From NCBI GenBank assembly GCA_965216875.1, contig OZ244207.1, positions 7,168,001 to 7,232,000 of the forward strand: 64,000 nucleotides of DNA, given 5' to 3'. Position numbers and translations under genes: made by a program. This document shows positions 50,535-59,926 of the stretch, piece by piece. Position 1 is the stretch's first letter. Every line of letters begins with the position of its first letter. The notes below the pieces were generated by a model. It worked only from the letters and a program-made list of their open reading frames with translations. It made no database searches and was not told where the DNA came from. This DNA comes from Rubripirellula sp. (lineage in GTDB: Bacteria; Planctomycetota; Planctomycetia; Pirellulales; Pirellulaceae).

Positions 50535-52178
50535 TTAGCGTCGTCCGGTTGCGTCTGGCTGGTCAGCAACCTTCGCTTCGGCATCGGGCGAACGACCAAG
50601 CAGGACCAATTTTGCATTTCGGACAAAACGATGCTTGGCCAATCTCGTGGCGCCGGCAAACCTCGCTCGTACTCGGTAGCGACCATCGATGGATTCGACA
50701 CCGAGCACTTCGCCGAGGATCGAAATAGGGGCACCATTGACGAAGTCGTCGACAACAAGCTTTGCCGCCCCGCTTTGCAATGTGGCCTTAGGTCGTTCCG
50801 TCGCTTCGATCCACGCGGTTGCCTCGATCACGTTTCGATCCGAAAGCACTGCGACGATCGTTCCCGCTTCCACACGCTGGCCAACTTGCACGACGATGTT
50901 CTCTACCGTGCCGCTGCTGGAGGCCGACACGGCAAGTTGATTCGCTTCGATTCGGCATGCTGTTAATTCTGCATCGCACAGCTCGACCTCGATTTGCCGC
51001 TCCGCCTGCTGTTGCTCTATAAGTTTCAACTCAATTTCGGCGAGCTGCAAACGGTGTTGTCTCTCCCGCCGCACATCCGAACGTAGCGGCGTTTGGCCAA
51101 TTTCATCCAACAGCCGGCGCGCTTCGTTAACTTCCAATTGAGCTTTTTGAAACTCAAGGGTCATGGGTTGACGTTGCTGTGCGAGTTTCAAACGCAAGCG
51201 TGCGGCTTCAAACTTTGCAGTTGTGGTTTCGTCATGAAGGGTGACGACGAGATCGCCGCGCTCAATCGTTGCGCCCTGCTGGCTGGCAATGGTATCGACC
51301 CAACCGGAAGCGGCCGTCCTGACCGCGATTTCCTTTGGCAAGTGTACGATGCAATCGGTCAGCACGAGTTCTTTGCGGTCCGCGGCAATGGCGGCTCCAA
51401 CCAAATGAGCAGTGCCGTTTTCGGGTATCGCTCGGTCGCTTCCCGAAATCCCACCTGATGGCAAACCGATGAAGTTCGGAGGGGAAGTTTCGGGAACGCC
51501 TTCGTTGGTGTGGTTGCCAAACAAAGCTTGAAAGGCGATCACCAGTCCAATCGCGGCTACCGCAACGATTGCTGGAACCAAACGCCGTAGTCGTTTTGGC
51601 GATGCGGGCGATTCGTGAAGCTGGGTCAGGGCTTGGTCGATCGATGAGGTGAGTACTTCGTCACGCTGTTCTTGATCGGTGGCAGACAAGTATTCACGGG
51701 CGTGTTTGCCGACTTGGCCAAGGAATCGCAAGTAGCCTTGCAGCGTGGCTTTGTTTGCGTCTTGGTCGATGGTGACTTGGATCAAATGCCGAGGCCCAAG
51801 GGGGGCAAGTGCAACGCGATCGCTTTGTCCGGCCAGATTGACGATCATCGGCGTGGCATCGTCGATCACTTGGGCAAACAAGGCTTGATGAGTGTCGTTG
51901 CAACTTGGGACGCTGCCATCAAGTGAACGTACGCCTGAAAAGGTTTGGTTGTGATCGAGCTGGAAGAGATCGACCGATTCCGATCCAAAGGCCTGCGCAA
52001 CCGTCGTTACGAGCCAGCCAAAGAACTGATCGGCCGACTGGTCGGTCTGAGCGATCGACTCGACCTTTCGCACGATGTCTGCGATTTCAGATTGAATCTG
52101 TTCGACAAGCGGATCGACGTCCGCTTGCGATGTTGCCAGCGGCGATGGCTCGGCTTGAGTCGGTTGCTGAGCGTCCAC
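50535..52178 (-). CDS. HlyD/membrane-fusion-like periplasmic adaptor with N-terminal GAF-like domain (start uncertain)
   Basis: Central TM; split lipoyl motifs (ASGWV...GATIERGD / SSSGTV...VGQRVEAG) around a coiled coil. Confidence 0.7.
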   Translation of the reverse strand: MDAQQPTQAEPSPLATSQADVDPLVEQIQSEIADIVRKVESIAQTDQSADQFFGWLVTTVAQAFGSESVDLFQLDHNQTFSGVRSLDGSVPSCNDTHQALFAQVIDDATPMIVNLAGQSDRVALAPLGPRHLIQVTIDQDANKATLQGYLRFLGQVGKHAREYLSATDQEQRDEVLTSSIDQALTQLHESPASPKRLRRLVPAIVAVAAIGLVIAFQALFGNHTNEGVPETSPPNFIGLPSGGISGSDRAIPENGTAHLVGAAIAADRKELVLTDCIVHLPKEIAVRTAASGWVDTIASQQGATIERGDLVVTLHDETTTAKFEAARLRLKLAQQRQPMTLEFQKAQLEVNEARRLLDEIGQTPLRSDVRRERQHRLQLAEIELKLIEQQQAERQIEVELCDAELTACRIEANQLAVSASSSGTVENIVVQVGQRVEAGTIVAVLSDRNVIEATAWIEATERPKATLQSGAAKLVVDDFVNGAPISILGEVLGVESIDGRYRVRARFAGATRLAKHRFVRNAKLVLLGRSPDAEAKVADQPDATGRR

Positions 52179-52545
52179 TGGTCGACGTCCGCAGGCAAAA
52201 AGGATCTCGAGAGGCCTTTCGAGTGGCGAGATCTCCACCACGCGAGGCCAGGAAAACGAGTTAGAGGTATCAAAACGACGGTTTTTTGCACAACCGAGGT
52301 TTCTTAAGGTGAATGCAAGCAACACGCTGGTTTTCCGGTCGGATCGACCCGGTTTGCGTGGCGCAAAAGACGTTCAATCGGGGCAAAATGCCAGCAATTC
52401 GGCCACAAGCGAATCTCCCGGTAGGTGAAATCTGCCTGATCGTGCACAATCATGAGCCAGGGAGCCCCGATCCTCCATCAAGAGCCAGATCAGCATCACG
52501 GATAACGATCGGTATCAGGGAAGAAACATCTGACGGTAACCAGAA

Positions 52546-54122: not shown

Positions 54123-55031
54123 CTAAAAGAGCTCGACTTCGCCCGATTCTCGGAAGCACCTGCCGTCGTCACCCACATCGGCTTGAAGCTCCGAGAGTGA
54201 TCGGAAGTCAGGCGATTCGCCGCAAATGATGCGGTGCATTTGTTGCACGTCGTGCTGCATGCGAAGCAACCCTTGGCTAACGGGATCTTGGAAGGCCAAG
54301 TGCGATAGCGTTTGATTCGAACAATCGAGGATTTGGTTGTTCTTGGTTTCGACGTGGTCCAGAACGACCTTGAGCGAGTCGGTTAATTCATCCGTTTTGC
54401 TGCTGACGACTTCCATTTCCTCGTCGAACTGGTTCGACATCGTATCCATTTGCTCTTCAATCACCGCCGTCTGCTCATGCATGCGTGGCATGGCGTCAAG
54501 AAAGATGGCGACCGAGCCTTTGATTTTGTCTGCGGCTTCACTGACCGCATGCGAGAACGCCTGGACCTGTTGGCCGAGAGCGGTGAACCCGCTTCCCTTG
54601 TCACCCAGACGTGCCGCTTCAATGCGGAGGTTGATGGCGAGCACTTGGCTCGTTTTGGTCAATTCCGAAACTTCGCTGGCGGATTGTTGGATGGTTGCAC
54701 ACGCAACACTTGCTTGACTTGCAAGGTCGCGGTGTTGATGAAAGAACTCGCGTGTTTGGTCGATAAAACCAGTGACGATATCGAGTTGGCGATGAACCAA
54801 ATCGCTGATCGAATCGGAGTCTTCACCTTCATCGCCAGATTGACCAACCGCTTCGGCCAGCGAGGATTTGACCTCTTGGTTGCCCTCGGTTGCCGTGCGC
54901 ACGATTTGCGTCAGCAGTTCGCCAATTTTCAGCGCTGCCTCTTCAGTCGAATGCCGCATCTCGTCCATCTCTGACGTGATGCGTTCGGTCACTTCGCCGC
55001 TCAGTTCGATGTCTTGAGGTGTGTGTTCCAT
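54123..55031 (-). CDS. Soluble degenerate methyl-accepting chemotaxis-like protein
   Basis: Tip-like SQVLAINLRIEAARLGDKGSGFTALG; C-terminal LAFQDPVSQ and GEVELF; no TM or sensor domain. Confidence 0.8.
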   Translation of the reverse strand: MEHTPQDIELSGEVTERITSEMDEMRHSTEEAALKIGELLTQIVRTATEGNQEVKSSLAEAVGQSGDEGEDSDSISDLVHRQLDIVTGFIDQTREFFHQHRDLASQASVACATIQQSASEVSELTKTSQVLAINLRIEAARLGDKGSGFTALGQQVQAFSHAVSEAADKIKGSVAIFLDAMPRMHEQTAVIEEQMDTMSNQFDEEMEVVSSKTDELTDSLKVVLDHVETKNNQILDCSNQTLSHLAFQDPVSQGLLRMQHDVQQMHRIICGESPDFRSLSELQADVGDDGRCFRESGEVELF

Positions 55032-55242
55032 GATGTCGCGACCAGTGGTGTGATGATGTTTGTCTTTGATTCGCGCGTGCGATCAAATGATCACCAGCAT
55101 TTGATTGTTTGCTTTGTCTTGATCACTGCGCAGACCGCTGATGCGGCCGCGCGTTTTTTTCTTGATTGGAAGTGTCGCGTCTGGGCAACCGCTAGGGACA
55201 ACGTTCCTAGCTTGGCTGCCCAGCACGCGACCGACCAATGAA

Positions 55243-55611
55243 CTATGCGGCGGTCAATTTCTTGACGGCGCTCACCAGCATTGCTGCGTCAAATGGCTTG
55301 ACGATCCATCCGCTGGCTCCAGCCTTTTTGGCCTTCATGATCAACTCTTTCGCACCTTCGGTGGTCAGCATCACGATGGGCAGGCTCGAGAAACGCGAGT
55401 CGCTTTTGACTTCTTCGACCATTTCGATGCCATTCTTGTTGGGCATGTTCACGTCGCAGACGACGCAATCGATTCCGCCACCACTGATTTTGTTCTTGCC
55501 ATCCACGCCGTCACAGGCTTCGACGACAGTCAAGCCAGCTTGCGTCAATGCAGCGCCAACTTGTTGGCGAACGGTCGCGGAGTCATCAACAACCAGGACT
55601 GTAGCACTCAT
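55243..55611 (-). CDS. cheY: Single-domain response regulator, CheY-like
   Basis: VLVVDDS; CDVNMP; MLTTE; GASGWIVKPF. Confidence 0.88.
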   Translation of the reverse strand: MSATVLVVDDSATVRQQVGAALTQAGLTVVEACDGVDGKNKISGGGIDCVVCDVNMPNKNGIEMVEEVKSDSRFSSLPIVMLTTEGAKELIMKAKKAGASGWIVKPFDAAMLVSAVKKLTAA

Positions 55612-55699
55612 TATTCAATCTCCAGGAAGGAAGGGGTTTTTTGATTTTGGTTTTGATTCTGATAGATGGTGTTCGGTTTGATGTTTTGATGTGCGCTGC

Positions 55700-56203
55700 T
55701 TAGAACAGGCTGATGCTGCCTTCTTCGGCAACGGCAAGTTCCGGGTCACGCACCAAGTTCAAGCACTCGTCAACTTCAAGCTTCAAGACGGCTGTGACGT
55801 AGCAACCGGACCACTTCACGTACCAGTGGCCATCGGTTTCGCCGTCAACATGCAGGTCTTTTCCGCACATCGTGACGGGCAAGCCCATGTTCATCAGGAC
55901 GCCATATTCAGCGATCTTGTTCTTGAACCGTCCGACGAGTTGGTTGCCGAGTTCGCCAAGCCAATCCGAGACGTCATCTTCGTCGCCGGCACCAAGTTGT
56001 TTGGCTGTGGTCGACTCGGCGAGCAATACCGCCGAACCGCGAAAGTGCTGGTCGCCAAAACCAACCGAAGCCGCTTGAGCCGACTCGATGCCGGTCAGCA
56101 ACTCGGTGTGTAGTTCGGGTTGAACGCCCGAATAACATTCGATCAATTCACGCAGCGACGTCTTGAATTCTTCAATCAAGACTTCAGTAGGGTTATTCGT
56201 CAT
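55700..56203 (-). CDS. cheX: CheX-family phosphatase
   Basis: DWLGELGNQLVG (E-x-x-N motif), MGLP; adjacent to cheY. Confidence 0.85.
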   Translation of the reverse strand: MTNNPTEVLIEEFKTSLRELIECYSGVQPELHTELLTGIESAQAASVGFGDQHFRGSAVLLAESTTAKQLGAGDEDDVSDWLGELGNQLVGRFKNKIAEYGVLMNMGLPVTMCGKDLHVDGETDGHWYVKWSGCYVTAVLKLEVDECLNLVRDPELAVAEEGSISLF

Positions 56204-56290
56204 CACGTTGCCCTTTGTTTATGTGGCCAATGTGTTCAGTGGAATGTTGTTCGTTGGGTGGCAACCACCGGGGCTGCCGAGTTGACTCGC

Positions 56291-56322
56291 GGCGTCAGCA
56301 ACCGCAAATCGTTGCTGACGCC
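56291..56322. other. Perfect 12-bp hairpin between the kinase gene and cheX
   Basis: ggcgtcagcaac-cgcaaatc-gttgctgacgcc. Confidence 0.65.
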
Positions 56323-56343
56323 GGAGTCGATTTTTGTCATTGC

Positions 56344-58380
56344 CTAAGCAGGTTGAACCAGTTCGTGACCTGGGTCTTCGATGCCATGGTTGGCCAACAT
56401 TTGAGTGGTCTCGGGTGCCATCGAATCGAGTGGGAAGGAGAACTCGAAAGTCGTTCCTTTGCCCGCTTCGGTTTCGACGCCGATGTGTCCGCCCAATGCG
56501 TCACAGGCTTCCTTCACGGCTCCCATGCCAACACCGCGTCCGCTGGTGTCGGTCACCATTTCTGCGGTCGACAAGCCGTCCGAGAAGATTGCGTTGATCA
56601 GATCCTCTTGGCTGTCGCAAGCCACTCCATGCTTTTCGGCAGCGGCTTTGACCTTGTCCCAGTTGATTCCACGACCGTCGTCGGCGATCGAGATCACGTA
56701 CTGGCCATCGCGAATTGCCGTCGAGCAGGAAATGTTGCCCGCCTCGCTCTTGTTTTGGCTGGCGCGATCTTCCGGTGATTCCAACCCGTGGTCGACAGCG
56801 TTGCGGATCACGTGGATCAGCGACGACCAGAACTTGGACCAGATTCCCGCATCCGTTCTCAAGCCGTGGTGCAGCGTTTGAACCATCACTGTGCCTTTGC
56901 CAAGTCGTGCCGCGAGGCTGTTGGCTTGTTCGGCGATTCGGTCCAGACGATCGCTGGTCGGTTCAAGCTGCCAACTCGCAACTTGTCGAGCCAAAACATC
57001 GCTTGTGGCGTTGTTGAGGATCGAGGTCATCAGCTTTTGGAAGTCTTCTTCGGCAAGCACAACCTGGTCGGTATCTTCGGCGACCAAGCGATGCAGGTTG
57101 CCTCGAGTGCTGGCCCAAGCACCGAACATTTCGGTCCACTTTGGCCCCTCTGGAAGCTCTTCGTTTTCAGCGATGAAGTCTTCAATCACGTGGCAAGCGT
57201 CCGCAAGGCGTTGTAAGCCAAAGATCGAAGCGTTCCCCTTGAGCGTGTGGACTTGGCGTTTGATCCAAGACAGCTCTCGACCTTCGCGGTTGCGAAGTGC
57301 TTCGACGATGTCTTCGGCTTCTTGGAAGAACTCCATCAAGCCGTTTCGGTCGGATGTGATCCGTTCGATCATCGCGAGCATTTCGCGGTTTTCGATTTCC
57401 AGTTTTTCGCGTTCGACGTCGGCCGTGATATCGCTGACCACGACTGCCAAGGTCGAAAGCTCGGTTCCGTTGAACACAGGGCTGTATTCGATCGACATTG
57501 TGCGTGAACCGACGCCCACTCGCGATGGGAGTTGAGCGATCGTGACTTCTTCGGGCAAGATGCCGGCGAAGACGTCGTCCAAGCCAAGTTCCAACCAGTC
57601 GGCTGCCTTGGTGTCGTGTTGACGCAGGACATCGGCAAAGGTCGTTTGCGGCTCCACGGCACCGAGCAAGCGGTCGACGGCGGCCGAGCGTTCTTCGCTG
57701 ACCAAGCCTTCGATGCCCAAGGTGAAGAAGCCTTGCTTGACCGAATCGAGCAGCAATTGCATGTCGCGGTTACGACCAGCAAGTTCTTCCGTTCGAGCAG
57801 CAACGATCTTTTCCAGACCAATCACGTTGTCGAAGAAGCTGCGGGCGATAAAACACGCTGCAACCGATTCCAAGACGACGAATGCTGCGTGAACGGCGAC
57901 AACCCAAAACGGAGCTTCGTAGTTGAACACACTCGCAGGCAAAGCCAGCCAAAGGATCGCGTGGTGCAACGCTGCGGTAATCGCAGCGGCCACAATCACC
58001 ATCGGGTTCGCAAAAACCGCTAACAGTGCGAGCAACACAAAGAAGTAGAAGTGCATCTCGATTTGAACGGGACCTTGTCCAAAGTGAACAAGCAAACCGC
58101 CCATGAACATCGCCGTGATGCCCATCACTGTCGAAACCGCGCGACGCGATTTGAACATTCGGTGAGCCAACATTGGCCCCAGCAGCGTCGCCGCAGAAAG
58201 GACCAACGCCTGGATCGGTCCCGTATCGTTAAGGAACGCGATCAGGCTGAGCACCGGAACGTGGGCCACAAAGAACCACGTCGCGATGCGATTCATTCTC
58301 GTCAGGTACTCTTCCTCAAAATCCGAAGTGATTTTGGGGAGCACCAAGTAGTTAACGAGTGCTTTTACTTTCTGTAACAC
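56344..58380 (-). CDS. CheA-like histidine kinase: polytopic TM sensor, PAS-like domain, Hpt, HATPase; no CheW domain
   Basis: About 6 TMs; Hpt VHTLKGNA; N box HVIRNAVDHG; DDGRG; F box IFSDGLST; SGRGVGMG; stop about 25 aa after GKGTTFEF; GAGGTG RBS. Confidence 0.9.
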   Translation of the reverse strand: MLQKVKALVNYLVLPKITSDFEEEYLTRMNRIATWFFVAHVPVLSLIAFLNDTGPIQALVLSAATLLGPMLAHRMFKSRRAVSTVMGITAMFMGGLLVHFGQGPVQIEMHFYFFVLLALLAVFANPMVIVAAAITAALHHAILWLALPASVFNYEAPFWVVAVHAAFVVLESVAACFIARSFFDNVIGLEKIVAARTEELAGRNRDMQLLLDSVKQGFFTLGIEGLVSEERSAAVDRLLGAVEPQTTFADVLRQHDTKAADWLELGLDDVFAGILPEEVTIAQLPSRVGVGSRTMSIEYSPVFNGTELSTLAVVVSDITADVEREKLEIENREMLAMIERITSDRNGLMEFFQEAEDIVEALRNREGRELSWIKRQVHTLKGNASIFGLQRLADACHVIEDFIAENEELPEGPKWTEMFGAWASTRGNLHRLVAEDTDQVVLAEEDFQKLMTSILNNATSDVLARQVASWQLEPTSDRLDRIAEQANSLAARLGKGTVMVQTLHHGLRTDAGIWSKFWSSLIHVIRNAVDHGLESPEDRASQNKSEAGNISCSTAIRDGQYVISIADDGRGINWDKVKAAAEKHGVACDSQEDLINAIFSDGLSTAEMVTDTSGRGVGMGAVKEACDALGGHIGVETEAGKGTTFEFSFPLDSMAPETTQMLANHGIEDPGHELVQPA

Positions 58381-58388
58381 AACTCACC

Positions 58389-59015
58389 TCATTTGAGTCC
58401 AAAAGGATCGATGATTGCCTTCAGTTCTTTTGAGACAGCACACCCGTAGAGTGGAAGTTCTTCAAAAACTTCGCCCGCTACGGTCCGACGAATCAACGAA
58501 TCGTCTTGGATGTCCAAACCTTGTTTTCGTGATGTGTATCCGCCCGAGTAGCGGATCACGCCTTCAGCGTCGATGACCATCAGCAGAGGAGCTGATTCGA
58601 CGCCGTAGCGTTCTTTCAGTTGGGGAGCTGTGACGACGTCGACGTCATAGCCCTTTTCGTGCGCAACCTTCTCGAGTTCCGGATCGTGCCCAATGAGCAC
58701 GATGCGTTCGTGAGCGATGTCCAACGGATTTCGCTCGACGATCCTCTTCAAGACTCGCCGCGAACAGGGACAATCCCCATACAAGAAATGAAAGGCATGC
58801 CACGAACTGCCCGTGTTGGCGCTAACCAACTCAGTCGCGACGCCCTTCGATGGGTGCGGAAGCTCGACCCAATGTCCGACCATCAAGCTGGCGGTCACCA
58901 CCAACATTCCGGCCGCCCACAAGACAAGTGCGACTTTGCCCCCGCCTCGCATGACTGAAGATGATCGACTCACTGGTCGACCCTGTGCCGATTCGGCTGA
59001 TTCTTGACGAATCAT
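58389..59015 (-). CDS. Membrane-anchored thioredoxin-fold protein (CPCS motif, C-terminal YGC)
   Basis: TM VALVLWAAGMLVVTASLMV; HFLYGDCPCS; YGVESAP (cis-Pro loop-like); YSGGYT; LPLYGCAV; start could be 58952. Confidence 0.75.
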   Translation of the reverse strand: MIRQESAESAQGRPVSRSSSVMRGGGKVALVLWAAGMLVVTASLMVGHWVELPHPSKGVATELVSANTGSSWHAFHFLYGDCPCSRRVLKRIVERNPLDIAHERIVLIGHDPELEKVAHEKGYDVDVVTAPQLKERYGVESAPLLMVIDAEGVIRYSGGYTSRKQGLDIQDDSLIRRTVAGEVFEELPLYGCAVSKELKAIIDPFGLK

Positions 59016-59314
59016 CAGATTGCCCCCGTAATATTGCCCCGTCGCTGCTCGTTTTGCCCGTGAGGCAGCGAACATTGAAAAATGGATTACGGTTTCGGCG
59101 TCAGGTTAACTTTTCGCATGAAGTCGACTCACATTCGTGGCGAAAAGATGACGGTTGTTCGGGTCGCAAGGATCGGCCAGGGCGCTCCACCTGAGTGGGG
59201 AACCAAACAATCGCCGCTGGCTGCCCAAACAATTCCCAGCACGCCCCTGACAAATCGACGATGCACTTCCTAACATGTCGGGCCGTTTGACTCTCCCTTA
59301 CGGCATGGCGCAAC

Positions 59315-59926
59315 ATGCTCGAGATCCTTGAATTGCTCGCCGTCGTCTCTAGTGGTTGCTACGGCGTCCTGCTCGCACGCCGACACCAACTCGACTTCGT
59401 TGGTGTGTTTAGCCTCGCGCTTGTGGTCGCATTTGGCGGCGGCACCATGCGTGATCTGTTTCTCGACCGGCATCCACTTTTTTGGATTCGCGAACACCAC
59501 TATCCGGTCATCATCTTTGTGCTTTCACTGGCGACGTCGCTGATGCCGAAGATGCCTGAGGCAACCGAACGGATGCTTTATATCCCCGACGCGCTGGGAC
59601 TTGGTCTGTTCACGATCGTTGGAGCGACGGCCGCAATGGACGCGGGGACATCCTTGTTCATCGCTTCATTGATGGGAGTGATCACGGGAACCTTTGGTGG
59701 CGTGATCGGCGACATCGTTTGCAATCGCGTTCCCAGCTTGTTCCGCACCGCGCCGCTCTTTGCAACCTGTGCGTTCGCTGGATGCTGGTTGCTCTTTTCA
59801 CTCCAGGCTGTTCGCGTGCCCGAACCCTACGCGACAACAACTGCGACTGGATTTATCGTCATCTTCCGACTCGCATCGGTCCGGTGGAACTGGCAACTGC
59901 CACCGATGGATGTCGACCGGCCGTGA
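59315..59926 (+). CDS. Trimeric intracellular cation channel / UPF0126 family protein
   Basis: LDFVG...FGGGTMRD; DALGLGLF; GVITGTFGGVIGD. Confidence 0.92.
   Translation: MLEILELLAVVSSGCYGVLLARRHQLDFVGVFSLALVVAFGGGTMRDLFLDRHPLFWIREHHYPVIIFVLSLATSLMPKMPEATERMLYIPDALGLGLFTIVGATAAMDAGTSLFIASLMGVITGTFGGVIGDIVCNRVPSLFRTAPLFATCAFAGCWLLFSLQAVRVPEPYATTTATGFIVIFRLASVRWNWQLPPMDVDRP

Follow-up and report, generated by a model that had tools for sequence, protein, structure and literature searches.

Sequence evidence for a class III histidine kinase operon with a RedB/RedC-type membrane input module in Rubripirellula

Class III histidine kinases (HKIII), as reportedly delineated by Adebali in 2017, are sensor kinases without a dimerisation domain that occur together with CheX and a single-domain regulator, to which an unorthodox soluble chemoreceptor is often added, in genomes that bear pilT; the title of that account is said to call the kinase domain 'recently accessorized'. 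In CheA, the class II kinase, P5/CheW is listed among the core domains (PMC10782961). RedC of Myxococcus xanthus (470 residues, His253) is a class I HisKA kinase that feeds RedD/E/F; its N-terminal domain is needed for signalling, and its signal was unknown in the 2009 paper (PMC2755868). Here, a five-gene operon of the planctomycete Rubripirellula sp. (assembly GCA_965216875.1) is compared with these systems. It is found at 7.22 Mb of the 8.26 Mb genome, at positions 54123 to 59015 of the stretch of DNA that was analysed, referred to as the window (64,000 nucleotides, positions 7,168,001 to 7,232,000 of contig OZ244207.1). The five open reading frames (ORFs) are intact and, as stated in a preliminary description of the sequence, co-directional; all are on the minus strand, to which the operon coordinates below refer, and they are separated, from first to last, by 8, 137, 88 and 211 nucleotides. 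They encode a membrane-anchored thioredoxin-like protein (Trx), the kinase, CheX, CheY and a soluble protein that looks like methyl-accepting chemotaxis proteins, or MCPs. Judged by its sequence, the system is a class III (CheW-less, CheA-derived) histidine kinase with a RedB/RedC-type input module. We give a probability of about 0.5 to the reading in which this kinase has a two-protein, metal-sensing membrane input, a CheY output and two phosphatases.

The CheW-less kinase and its gene neighbourhood

The kinase (56344-58380, 678 residues) starts with a six-helix membrane sensor domain (residues 1-197; 57790..58380), followed by a cytoplasmic part (56344..57789) with a probable PAS-like segment, an Hpt domain, a CheA-type HATPase domain and a tail. 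At E<=0.1, the Pfam matches are Hpt (residues 350-415) and HATPase_c (residues 520-652) and nothing else, without any match of the kinase to H-kinase_dim, HisKA or CheW. The P3 and P5 domains are not detected in the kinase, and the helical stretch of residues 463-480 aligns with the end of the P3 domain of CheA. The HATPase domain carries the N, G1, F and G2 boxes and is of the CheA type (E 4e-33 when compared with E. coli CheA), and the candidate phospho-acceptor of the Hpt domain is His378, within the HTLKG motif. The chain ends 26 residues past the ATPase domain, close to the 25 counted before; this tail has 3-49 residues in 66 of the 67 scored homologues, the one outlier having 631. PAS_4 is matched weakly in two of 35 aligned homologues, between the transmembrane (TM) domain and Hpt, and there is probably a PAS-like stretch at this position.

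The absence of a P5/CheW domain, as claimed in the preliminary description, is confirmed by the Pfam scan and by a CheW profile, constructed from the CheW domains of this genome, which finds zero matches at E<=1 in the six frames of the window. All CheW, CheR and CheB matches of the genome are confined to clusters at 3.87 and 6.59 Mb, with CheW in both and CheR and CheB in one of the two, so that cheW, cheR and cheB are indeed outside the window. Because the profile search is empty and the CheW matches are located elsewhere, a frameshifted or hidden CheW domain after position 56344 is ruled out.

When compared with the reported features of HKIII systems, the kinase has the N-terminal sensor and the Hpt domain with the CheA-type ATPase, and it lacks both CheW and a dimerisation domain; CheX, a single-domain regulator and a soluble chemoreceptor of unorthodox type are linked to it as well, and the genome carries pilT. 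As every feature tested agrees, the core is of a known kind, and its four genes have probably been described already as HKIII. The earlier assignment to the class III kinases is therefore correct for the architecture, but the framing of these kinases as evolutionary intermediates does not agree with the title quoted above. The operon adds to the HKIII core a portable pair, consisting of a six-helix His/Glu input domain and a dedicated three-cysteine thioredoxin partner (with a CxC motif, a distal cysteine and copper as a lead), and what is likely an MCP-shaped phosphatase. With CheA, the kinase shares the ATPase type and the HTLKG Hpt domain, but it differs in having a membrane sensor of its own and in lacking P2 and P5/CheW, and P3 is not detected.

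A search with the kinase finds 174 relatives, the best 80 of which were kept as loci. These are from Planctomycetota, Myxococcota, Nitrospirota, Acidobacteriota, Gemmatimonadota and Pseudomonadota, and the nearest relatives among them are from Pirellulaceae and other planctomycetes. Trx is found in 72 of the 80 loci and CheY in 58; CheX is present in 45 and the MCP-like gene in 30, and 22 loci have all four. If only the 49 loci that have 3.5 kb or more on each flank are counted, these numbers are 45, 38, 29, 23 and 18, respectively. Trx is directly upstream of the kinase in 64 of the 77 loci with enough flank, and the linkage between the two is far beyond chance. The linkage of the genes is conserved, but a conserved five-gene order is ruled out, since the gene order is shuffled among the loci, with the content being conserved, and since the four partners are so seldom found together. 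Strong Trx matches are found in none of 40 relatives of the genome, and weak ones in three, and one well-supported kinase clade of the tree (a quick tree) covers three phyla; from these two observations, the unit is patchy and likely moves sideways.

At some loci, the module is found next to other signalling genes. Hpt-ATPase kinases without a CheW match adjoin it at L014:8446-10533, L044:8365-10506, L025:1726-4209, L062:2351-4459 and L077:2133-4316, several of these second kinases carrying HAMP or CHASE8 sensors, and this suggests that several class III kinases share one CheY/CheX set. In one homologue (P0180), CheX is fused to the C terminus of a class III kinase. CheW-like ORFs are present in two of the 80 loci; the module adjoins canonical che genes (CheW, MCP, CheB-like) in locus L013 and CheA in locus L070.

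CheY, CheX and the MCP-like protein

The output side is formed by a CheY-type single-domain receiver (55243..55611), in which D9, D10, D53, T83 and K105 are all intact, and by a CheX phosphatase (55700..56206), whose ExxN motif (E85, N88) is kept in 45 of 45 cases. CheX ends in a conserved EGxxxLF tail, and a similar tail is seen in 41 of the 45 operon CheX proteins, unlike the other CheX proteins of this genome. The fifth gene (54123..55031) encodes a soluble, McpA-like MCP-hairpin protein, which is a candidate phosphatase for phosphorylated CheY (CheY-P). It has the LxFQDxxxQ motif, in which D249 and Q253 are invariant in 31 of 31 homologues above 150 bits, and it ends in GEVELF. The combination of DxxxQ and a G-x-x-x-L-F tail is present in all 31 MCP-like proteins and in none of 16 canonical MCPs that carry the same six-helix sensor; DxxxQ is also absent from the seven canonical MCPs of the genome. 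Conversely, the tip motifs QTNLL and EVR, which are found in 12 and 14 of the 16 canonical MCPs, respectively, are in none of the 31, and a methylation-site consensus is not found in the MCP-like family, which therefore differs from canonical chemoreceptors with their intact tip and methylation sites. Most of the tip is less well conserved than DxxxQ. With this degenerate tip and the fully kept DxxxQ, the protein looks like a phosphatase with a CheZ motif and not like the receptor that it had been taken for.

In CheZ, the active-site region is the FQ-DxxxQ segment (PMC7750401). The likeness between CheZ and the MCP-like protein, as far as CheZ is described there, concerns FQ-DxxxQ on a helical hairpin, a linker and a conserved C-terminal peptide, with AXXFQ in CheZ and L-x-x-L-x-FQ in the MCP-like protein (PMC7750401). 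On this pattern of conserved residues, the MCP-like protein is likely a CheY-P phosphatase, and the similarity between its tail and the tail of CheX suggests that both may use a common docking site on CheY. Homology to CheZ itself was looked for by profile and not found. PF04344 is not among the best 25 of 71 families matched by the MCP-like protein, and CheZ structures are absent from the 58 PDB matches of its family, both of which weigh against a phosphatase of this kind; moreover, a CheZ profile gives no match at this gene at E<=1 when used against its own genome, and the Atlas label is MCPsignal. By analogy, the resemblance suggests a shared function rather than family membership.

An alternative for this gene, which we regard as tentative and somewhat doubtful, is that it encodes an unorthodox soluble receptor or scaffold that joins the canonical chemoreceptor arrays of the genome, with DxxxQ being structural instead of catalytic. 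This is in agreement with the match of 29 of 29 aligned members to MCPsignal, CheZ not being among the matches listed, and with the presence in the genome of two CheA/CheW clusters and of an orphan MCP-like paralogue. An association with F6 arrays is reported for the McpA-like receptors, which also have a conserved non-CheR tail whose role is given as unclear (PMC7184735). As described there, the McpA-like receptors PA0180 and VCA1088 resemble the operon protein in having an unclassifiable MCP domain and a non-CheR C-terminal peptide with valine at position 2; McpA has a predicted TM region, and the operon protein has none. Against a receptor or scaffold stand the missing QTNLL, EVR and methylation-site consensus, the conservation of DxxxQ beyond that of most of the tip, and the tail shared with the operon CheX. 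The operon provides a compact, CheW-free system for probing whether MCP-shaped DxxxQ proteins act as CheY phosphatases. The orphan paralogue (L081:8131-9078, at 1.498 Mb of the genome) has 46% identity, FQDxxxQ and a GEVDLF tail, and its neighbours are sulfatase, ECF sigma and FecR-like genes.

The thioredoxin-like protein and the six-helix sensor domain

Trx (58389..59015, 208 residues; 228 residues if the upstream ATG at 59075 is used) is a distant relative of RedB and DUF6436. It has one TM helix (residues 24-50), and from the positive-inside rule its thioredoxin domain would face outward. The best structural match of the model (pLDDT 89.7) is 3u5r (Z 13.3, rmsd 3.3, 150 residues aligned), and this match extends over the GC segment; 2cvb/2ywo, also with thioredoxin/peroxiredoxin-like folds, are matched too. 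The fold and the membrane anchor noted before are thereby supported, but the CPCS motif is a CxC motif (C82, C84) and not CxxC. The invariant residues are H48, at the outer end of the anchor helix, H76, C82-x-C84, E103, P143, at the cis-Pro position, and G191-C192. Among 119 homologues from both Trx families, CxC is found in 118, the distal GC in 119 and CxxC in two. Canonical thioredoxin has the same fold, but its CxxC active site is not preserved here, Ser85 aligning with the position of the second cysteine. The DUF6436 score of Trx is 21.7-22.1 bits, below the Pfam gathering threshold of 27.3; a weak match of this kind is found for 64 of 75 family members, and one member reaches 27.8 bits.

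In the model of kinase residues 1-197 (pLDDT 94.5), a short helix at the N terminus is followed by six long ones, in agreement with the approximately six TM helices of the preliminary description. Five residues, H99, E108, H110, H140 and H164, are kept in 97, 104, 103, 103 and 100 of the 104 top matches, respectively, and in all of 15 MCP fusions and 12 RedC-type proteins; C176 of the last TM helix shows partial conservation in the same three groups (66/104, 10/15 and 11/12). These counts are used instead of the invariance of QIEMHFYF in the 80 loci, which is partly circular because this peptide seeded the search. According to the helix boundaries of the model and an N-in topology, the conserved His/Glu residues would be in the half of the membrane that faces outward, on the side predicted for the Trx domain. 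This cluster likely binds metal. No Pfam or NCBIfam name is found for the TM domain. In the ESM Atlas, unnamed clusters rank first, with MASE11/6/2 at 0.90-0.91 as leads only; Foldseek gives no match for the model at E<=0.001, and VIA-align finds the six-helix receptor anchors of adenylyl cyclase and ImcA at Z 9.9-10.6, which is below the trusted level for helical bundles.

A search with the sensor domain finds 1673 relatives at E<=0.001, and the 29 relatives that were scanned include fusions to Hpt kinases, to class I kinases and to MCPs. Since Trx and the six-helix domain co-occur on kinases of class III and class I and also on MCPs, their sequences identify them as a portable pair that does not depend on the kinase type. 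A second, distant pair is found in this genome on a class I kinase at 2.557 Mb. Its RedB/RedC-type operon (L087:3710-7876, 2.553-2.558 Mb of the genome) encodes a CxC Trx-like protein, a six-helix class I kinase, a hybrid REC-kinase-REC protein and a receiver with a long C-terminal region, and a FixJ-like regulator is divergent from it. Of 120 homologues listed for the Trx of this second pair, two are named RedB (Corallococcus).

By sequence comparison, the operon pair is related to the RedB/RedC/DUF6436 module. The operon Trx family matches a RedB-named protein (hhalign probability 94, E 1e-7), and the operon six-helix domain matches the six-helix domain of the kinase in the loci with the red gene order at E about 1e-21. 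The RedB sample consists of 13 loci, fetched from 18 strong matches in 81 genomes of one myxobacterial family; a six-helix gene adjoins RedB in 11 of the 13. In four RedB loci, the genes follow the order of the red operon: a receiver comes first, then RedB, a six-helix HisKA kinase, a dual receiver and a kinase-like gene. Pfam confirms this order for one of them (L104), with a single receiver following, and the kinase has 471 residues with His257, close to the size and histidine position of RedC; the orthology to M. xanthus RedB/RedC is deduced from database names, gene order and sizes. Both systems have a Trx-like gene upstream of a six-helix kinase, with the same CxC and GC motifs and the same H/E/H/H/H set; the cis-Pro is lost in the RedB branch. 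Instead of the four-component Red output (HisKA kinase, dual receiver, kinase-like phosphatase), the operon has an Hpt/CheA-type core, CheY, CheX and the MCP-like protein.

In 201 genomes of a gammaproteobacterial class, five DUF6436 (PF20029) matches are above the cut-off. One of these belongs to the operon Trx family, and the remaining four genes (4/4) abut an MCP with the same six-helix sensor; five sub-threshold matches are not beside such an MCP. The weak family match and the sensor are common to these pairs and the operon, and the output is an MCP there and a kinase here. In the literature searched, neither the six-helix domain nor its partner is described, and a link between RedB and thioredoxin and a function of DUF6436 were not found either, an earlier account in Adebali 2017, Wuichet 2010, Gumerov 2021, Higgs 2005 or in supplements being possible.

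The sensed signal and the proposed mechanism

In the proposed mechanism, the His/Glu cluster of the six-helix domain would bind metal, with copper as the lead, and the three-cysteine Trx partner is predicted to load this site or to set its redox state. Occupancy or oxidation of the site would then be relayed by the PAS-like segment to the ATPase domain, on which His378 would be phosphorylated and would pass the phosphoryl group to Asp53 of CheY. CheX (ExxN) and the MCP-shaped protein (DxxxQ) would both remove the phosphate from CheY, each being tethered by its similar G-x-x-x-L-F tail. For the target of CheY-P, motility control is the default guess, because the genome has FliM and PilT (three PilT matches are above the cut-off).

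Copper is suggested by the neighbours. SCO proteins handle copper, and SCO1/SenC genes abut the Trx gene in eight of the 80 loci, one of them fused to PCuAC; if the background is put roughly at 1-5 SCO genes per 8 Mb, 0.1-0.6 would be expected in the 0.93 Mb examined. On the quick tree, this linkage requires three changes, at least two of which are forced. In a Nitrospirota genome with a Trx-less kinase locus, Trx is found elsewhere, directly behind an SCO gene; this ninth SCO-Trx pair is not clearly independent, as the kinase of its genome falls in the same larger clade as the six SCO loci discussed below. On these sequence data, copper is a lead, and thiol redox is a live rival. Cytochrome c peroxidase genes occur in three of the 80 loci, and in two myxobacterial loci (L062:4469-5518, L077:4372-5907) a di-haem cytochrome c peroxidase gene occupies the usual place of Trx, just upstream of a Trx-less kinase.

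Of the earlier claim that Trx gates the kinase, the coupling of Trx and sensor into a pair fit for metal or redox sensing is supported, but not the gating itself. The predicted Trx-sensor complex scores 0.56, with 0.00 for the best control, which is graded as weak support; the runs agree in at least 79% of contacts, with a partner pLDDT of at least 76. The mark for such scores is reached by 116 of 157 solved and two of 215 mismatched pairs, but scores up to 0.60 that reach it include only 18 of the 157 solved pairs and both mismatched ones. Furthermore, redB mutants of M. xanthus have no detectable phenotype, which counts against obligatory gating by Trx (PMC2755868). Several other observations weigh against a copper-loaded, Trx-coupled input with two phosphatases. 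A linked Trx is missing from four loci that have 6 kb of flank on each side, two of the 13 RedB genes are orphans without a sensor neighbour, and CheX and the MCP-like gene are optional among the loci. Of the eight SCO loci, six belong to a single clade, and SCO is not found at 72 of the 80 loci, at the operon, at the 13 RedB loci or, within their short flanks, at the four DUF6436 loci. The His/Glu cluster itself is read from alignments and helix positions.

An alternative that we consider unlikely is that Trx is a thiol-redox relay, in which a C82-C192 or C82-C84 disulfide would report the oxidation of the envelope, the sensor being regulated by contact or electron transfer and copper having no special role. 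The thioredoxin/peroxiredoxin-like fold, with the 3u5r match extending over the GC segment, agrees with such a relay, as do P143 at the cis-Pro position, the partial conservation of C176 and, at two of the eight Trx-less loci, the presence of a di-haem cytochrome c peroxidase gene immediately upstream of the kinase; CxxC is absent, however, the RedB branch is without cis-Pro, and the relay leaves the SCO/PCuAC linkage and the invariant His/Glu set unexplained. Rather improbable, lastly, is a sensor that works alone and binds a small ligand, gas or haem in its His pocket, with Trx as an ancillary maturation or protection factor without gating. In its favour are the redB mutant without phenotype and the need for the RedC N-terminal domain (PMC2755868), the Trx-less loci that keep the sensor and the weak fold similarity to the adenylyl cyclase and ImcA anchors (Z 9.9-10.6). 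Against it are the invariant H48 in the Trx anchor motif and the persistence of the pair over several phyla and three types of output, from which a close functional coupling of the two proteins is suggested.

The two-protein, metal-sensing reading ties together, in one testable module, the signal of RedC and the role of RedB, the six-helix MCPs linked to DUF6436 in gammaproteobacteria, and the input of a class III kinase family that crosses phyla; the residues to probe are H99, E108, H110, H140 and H164 of the sensor and C82, C84 and C192 of Trx, with copper as the first ligand. A wider version, which seems doubtful as a whole, is that the six-helix domain and Trx form a widespread copper-cofactor receptor, loaded from SCO to Trx and plugged into MCPs, class I kinases (with RedC of M. 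xanthus among them) and class III kinases, a chemoreceptor-derived, CheZ-like phosphatase closing the output in this operon. If true, it would cover the RedC signal and would also explain the McpA-like proteins.

A promoter and terminator scan of the operon gives no signal above that of shuffled sequence. In plasmid searches, the TM domain is unmatched, and the MCP-like protein has weak generic MCP matches only. Elsewhere in the window, positions 50535-52325 encode an HlyD-like protein of 596 residues, soluble in its N-terminal region, for which the tests made show no relation to the operon. Outside the recurring neighbour clusters, a membrane protein of the PF03458 glycine-transporter family is encoded at positions 59315-59926, divergent from the operon.

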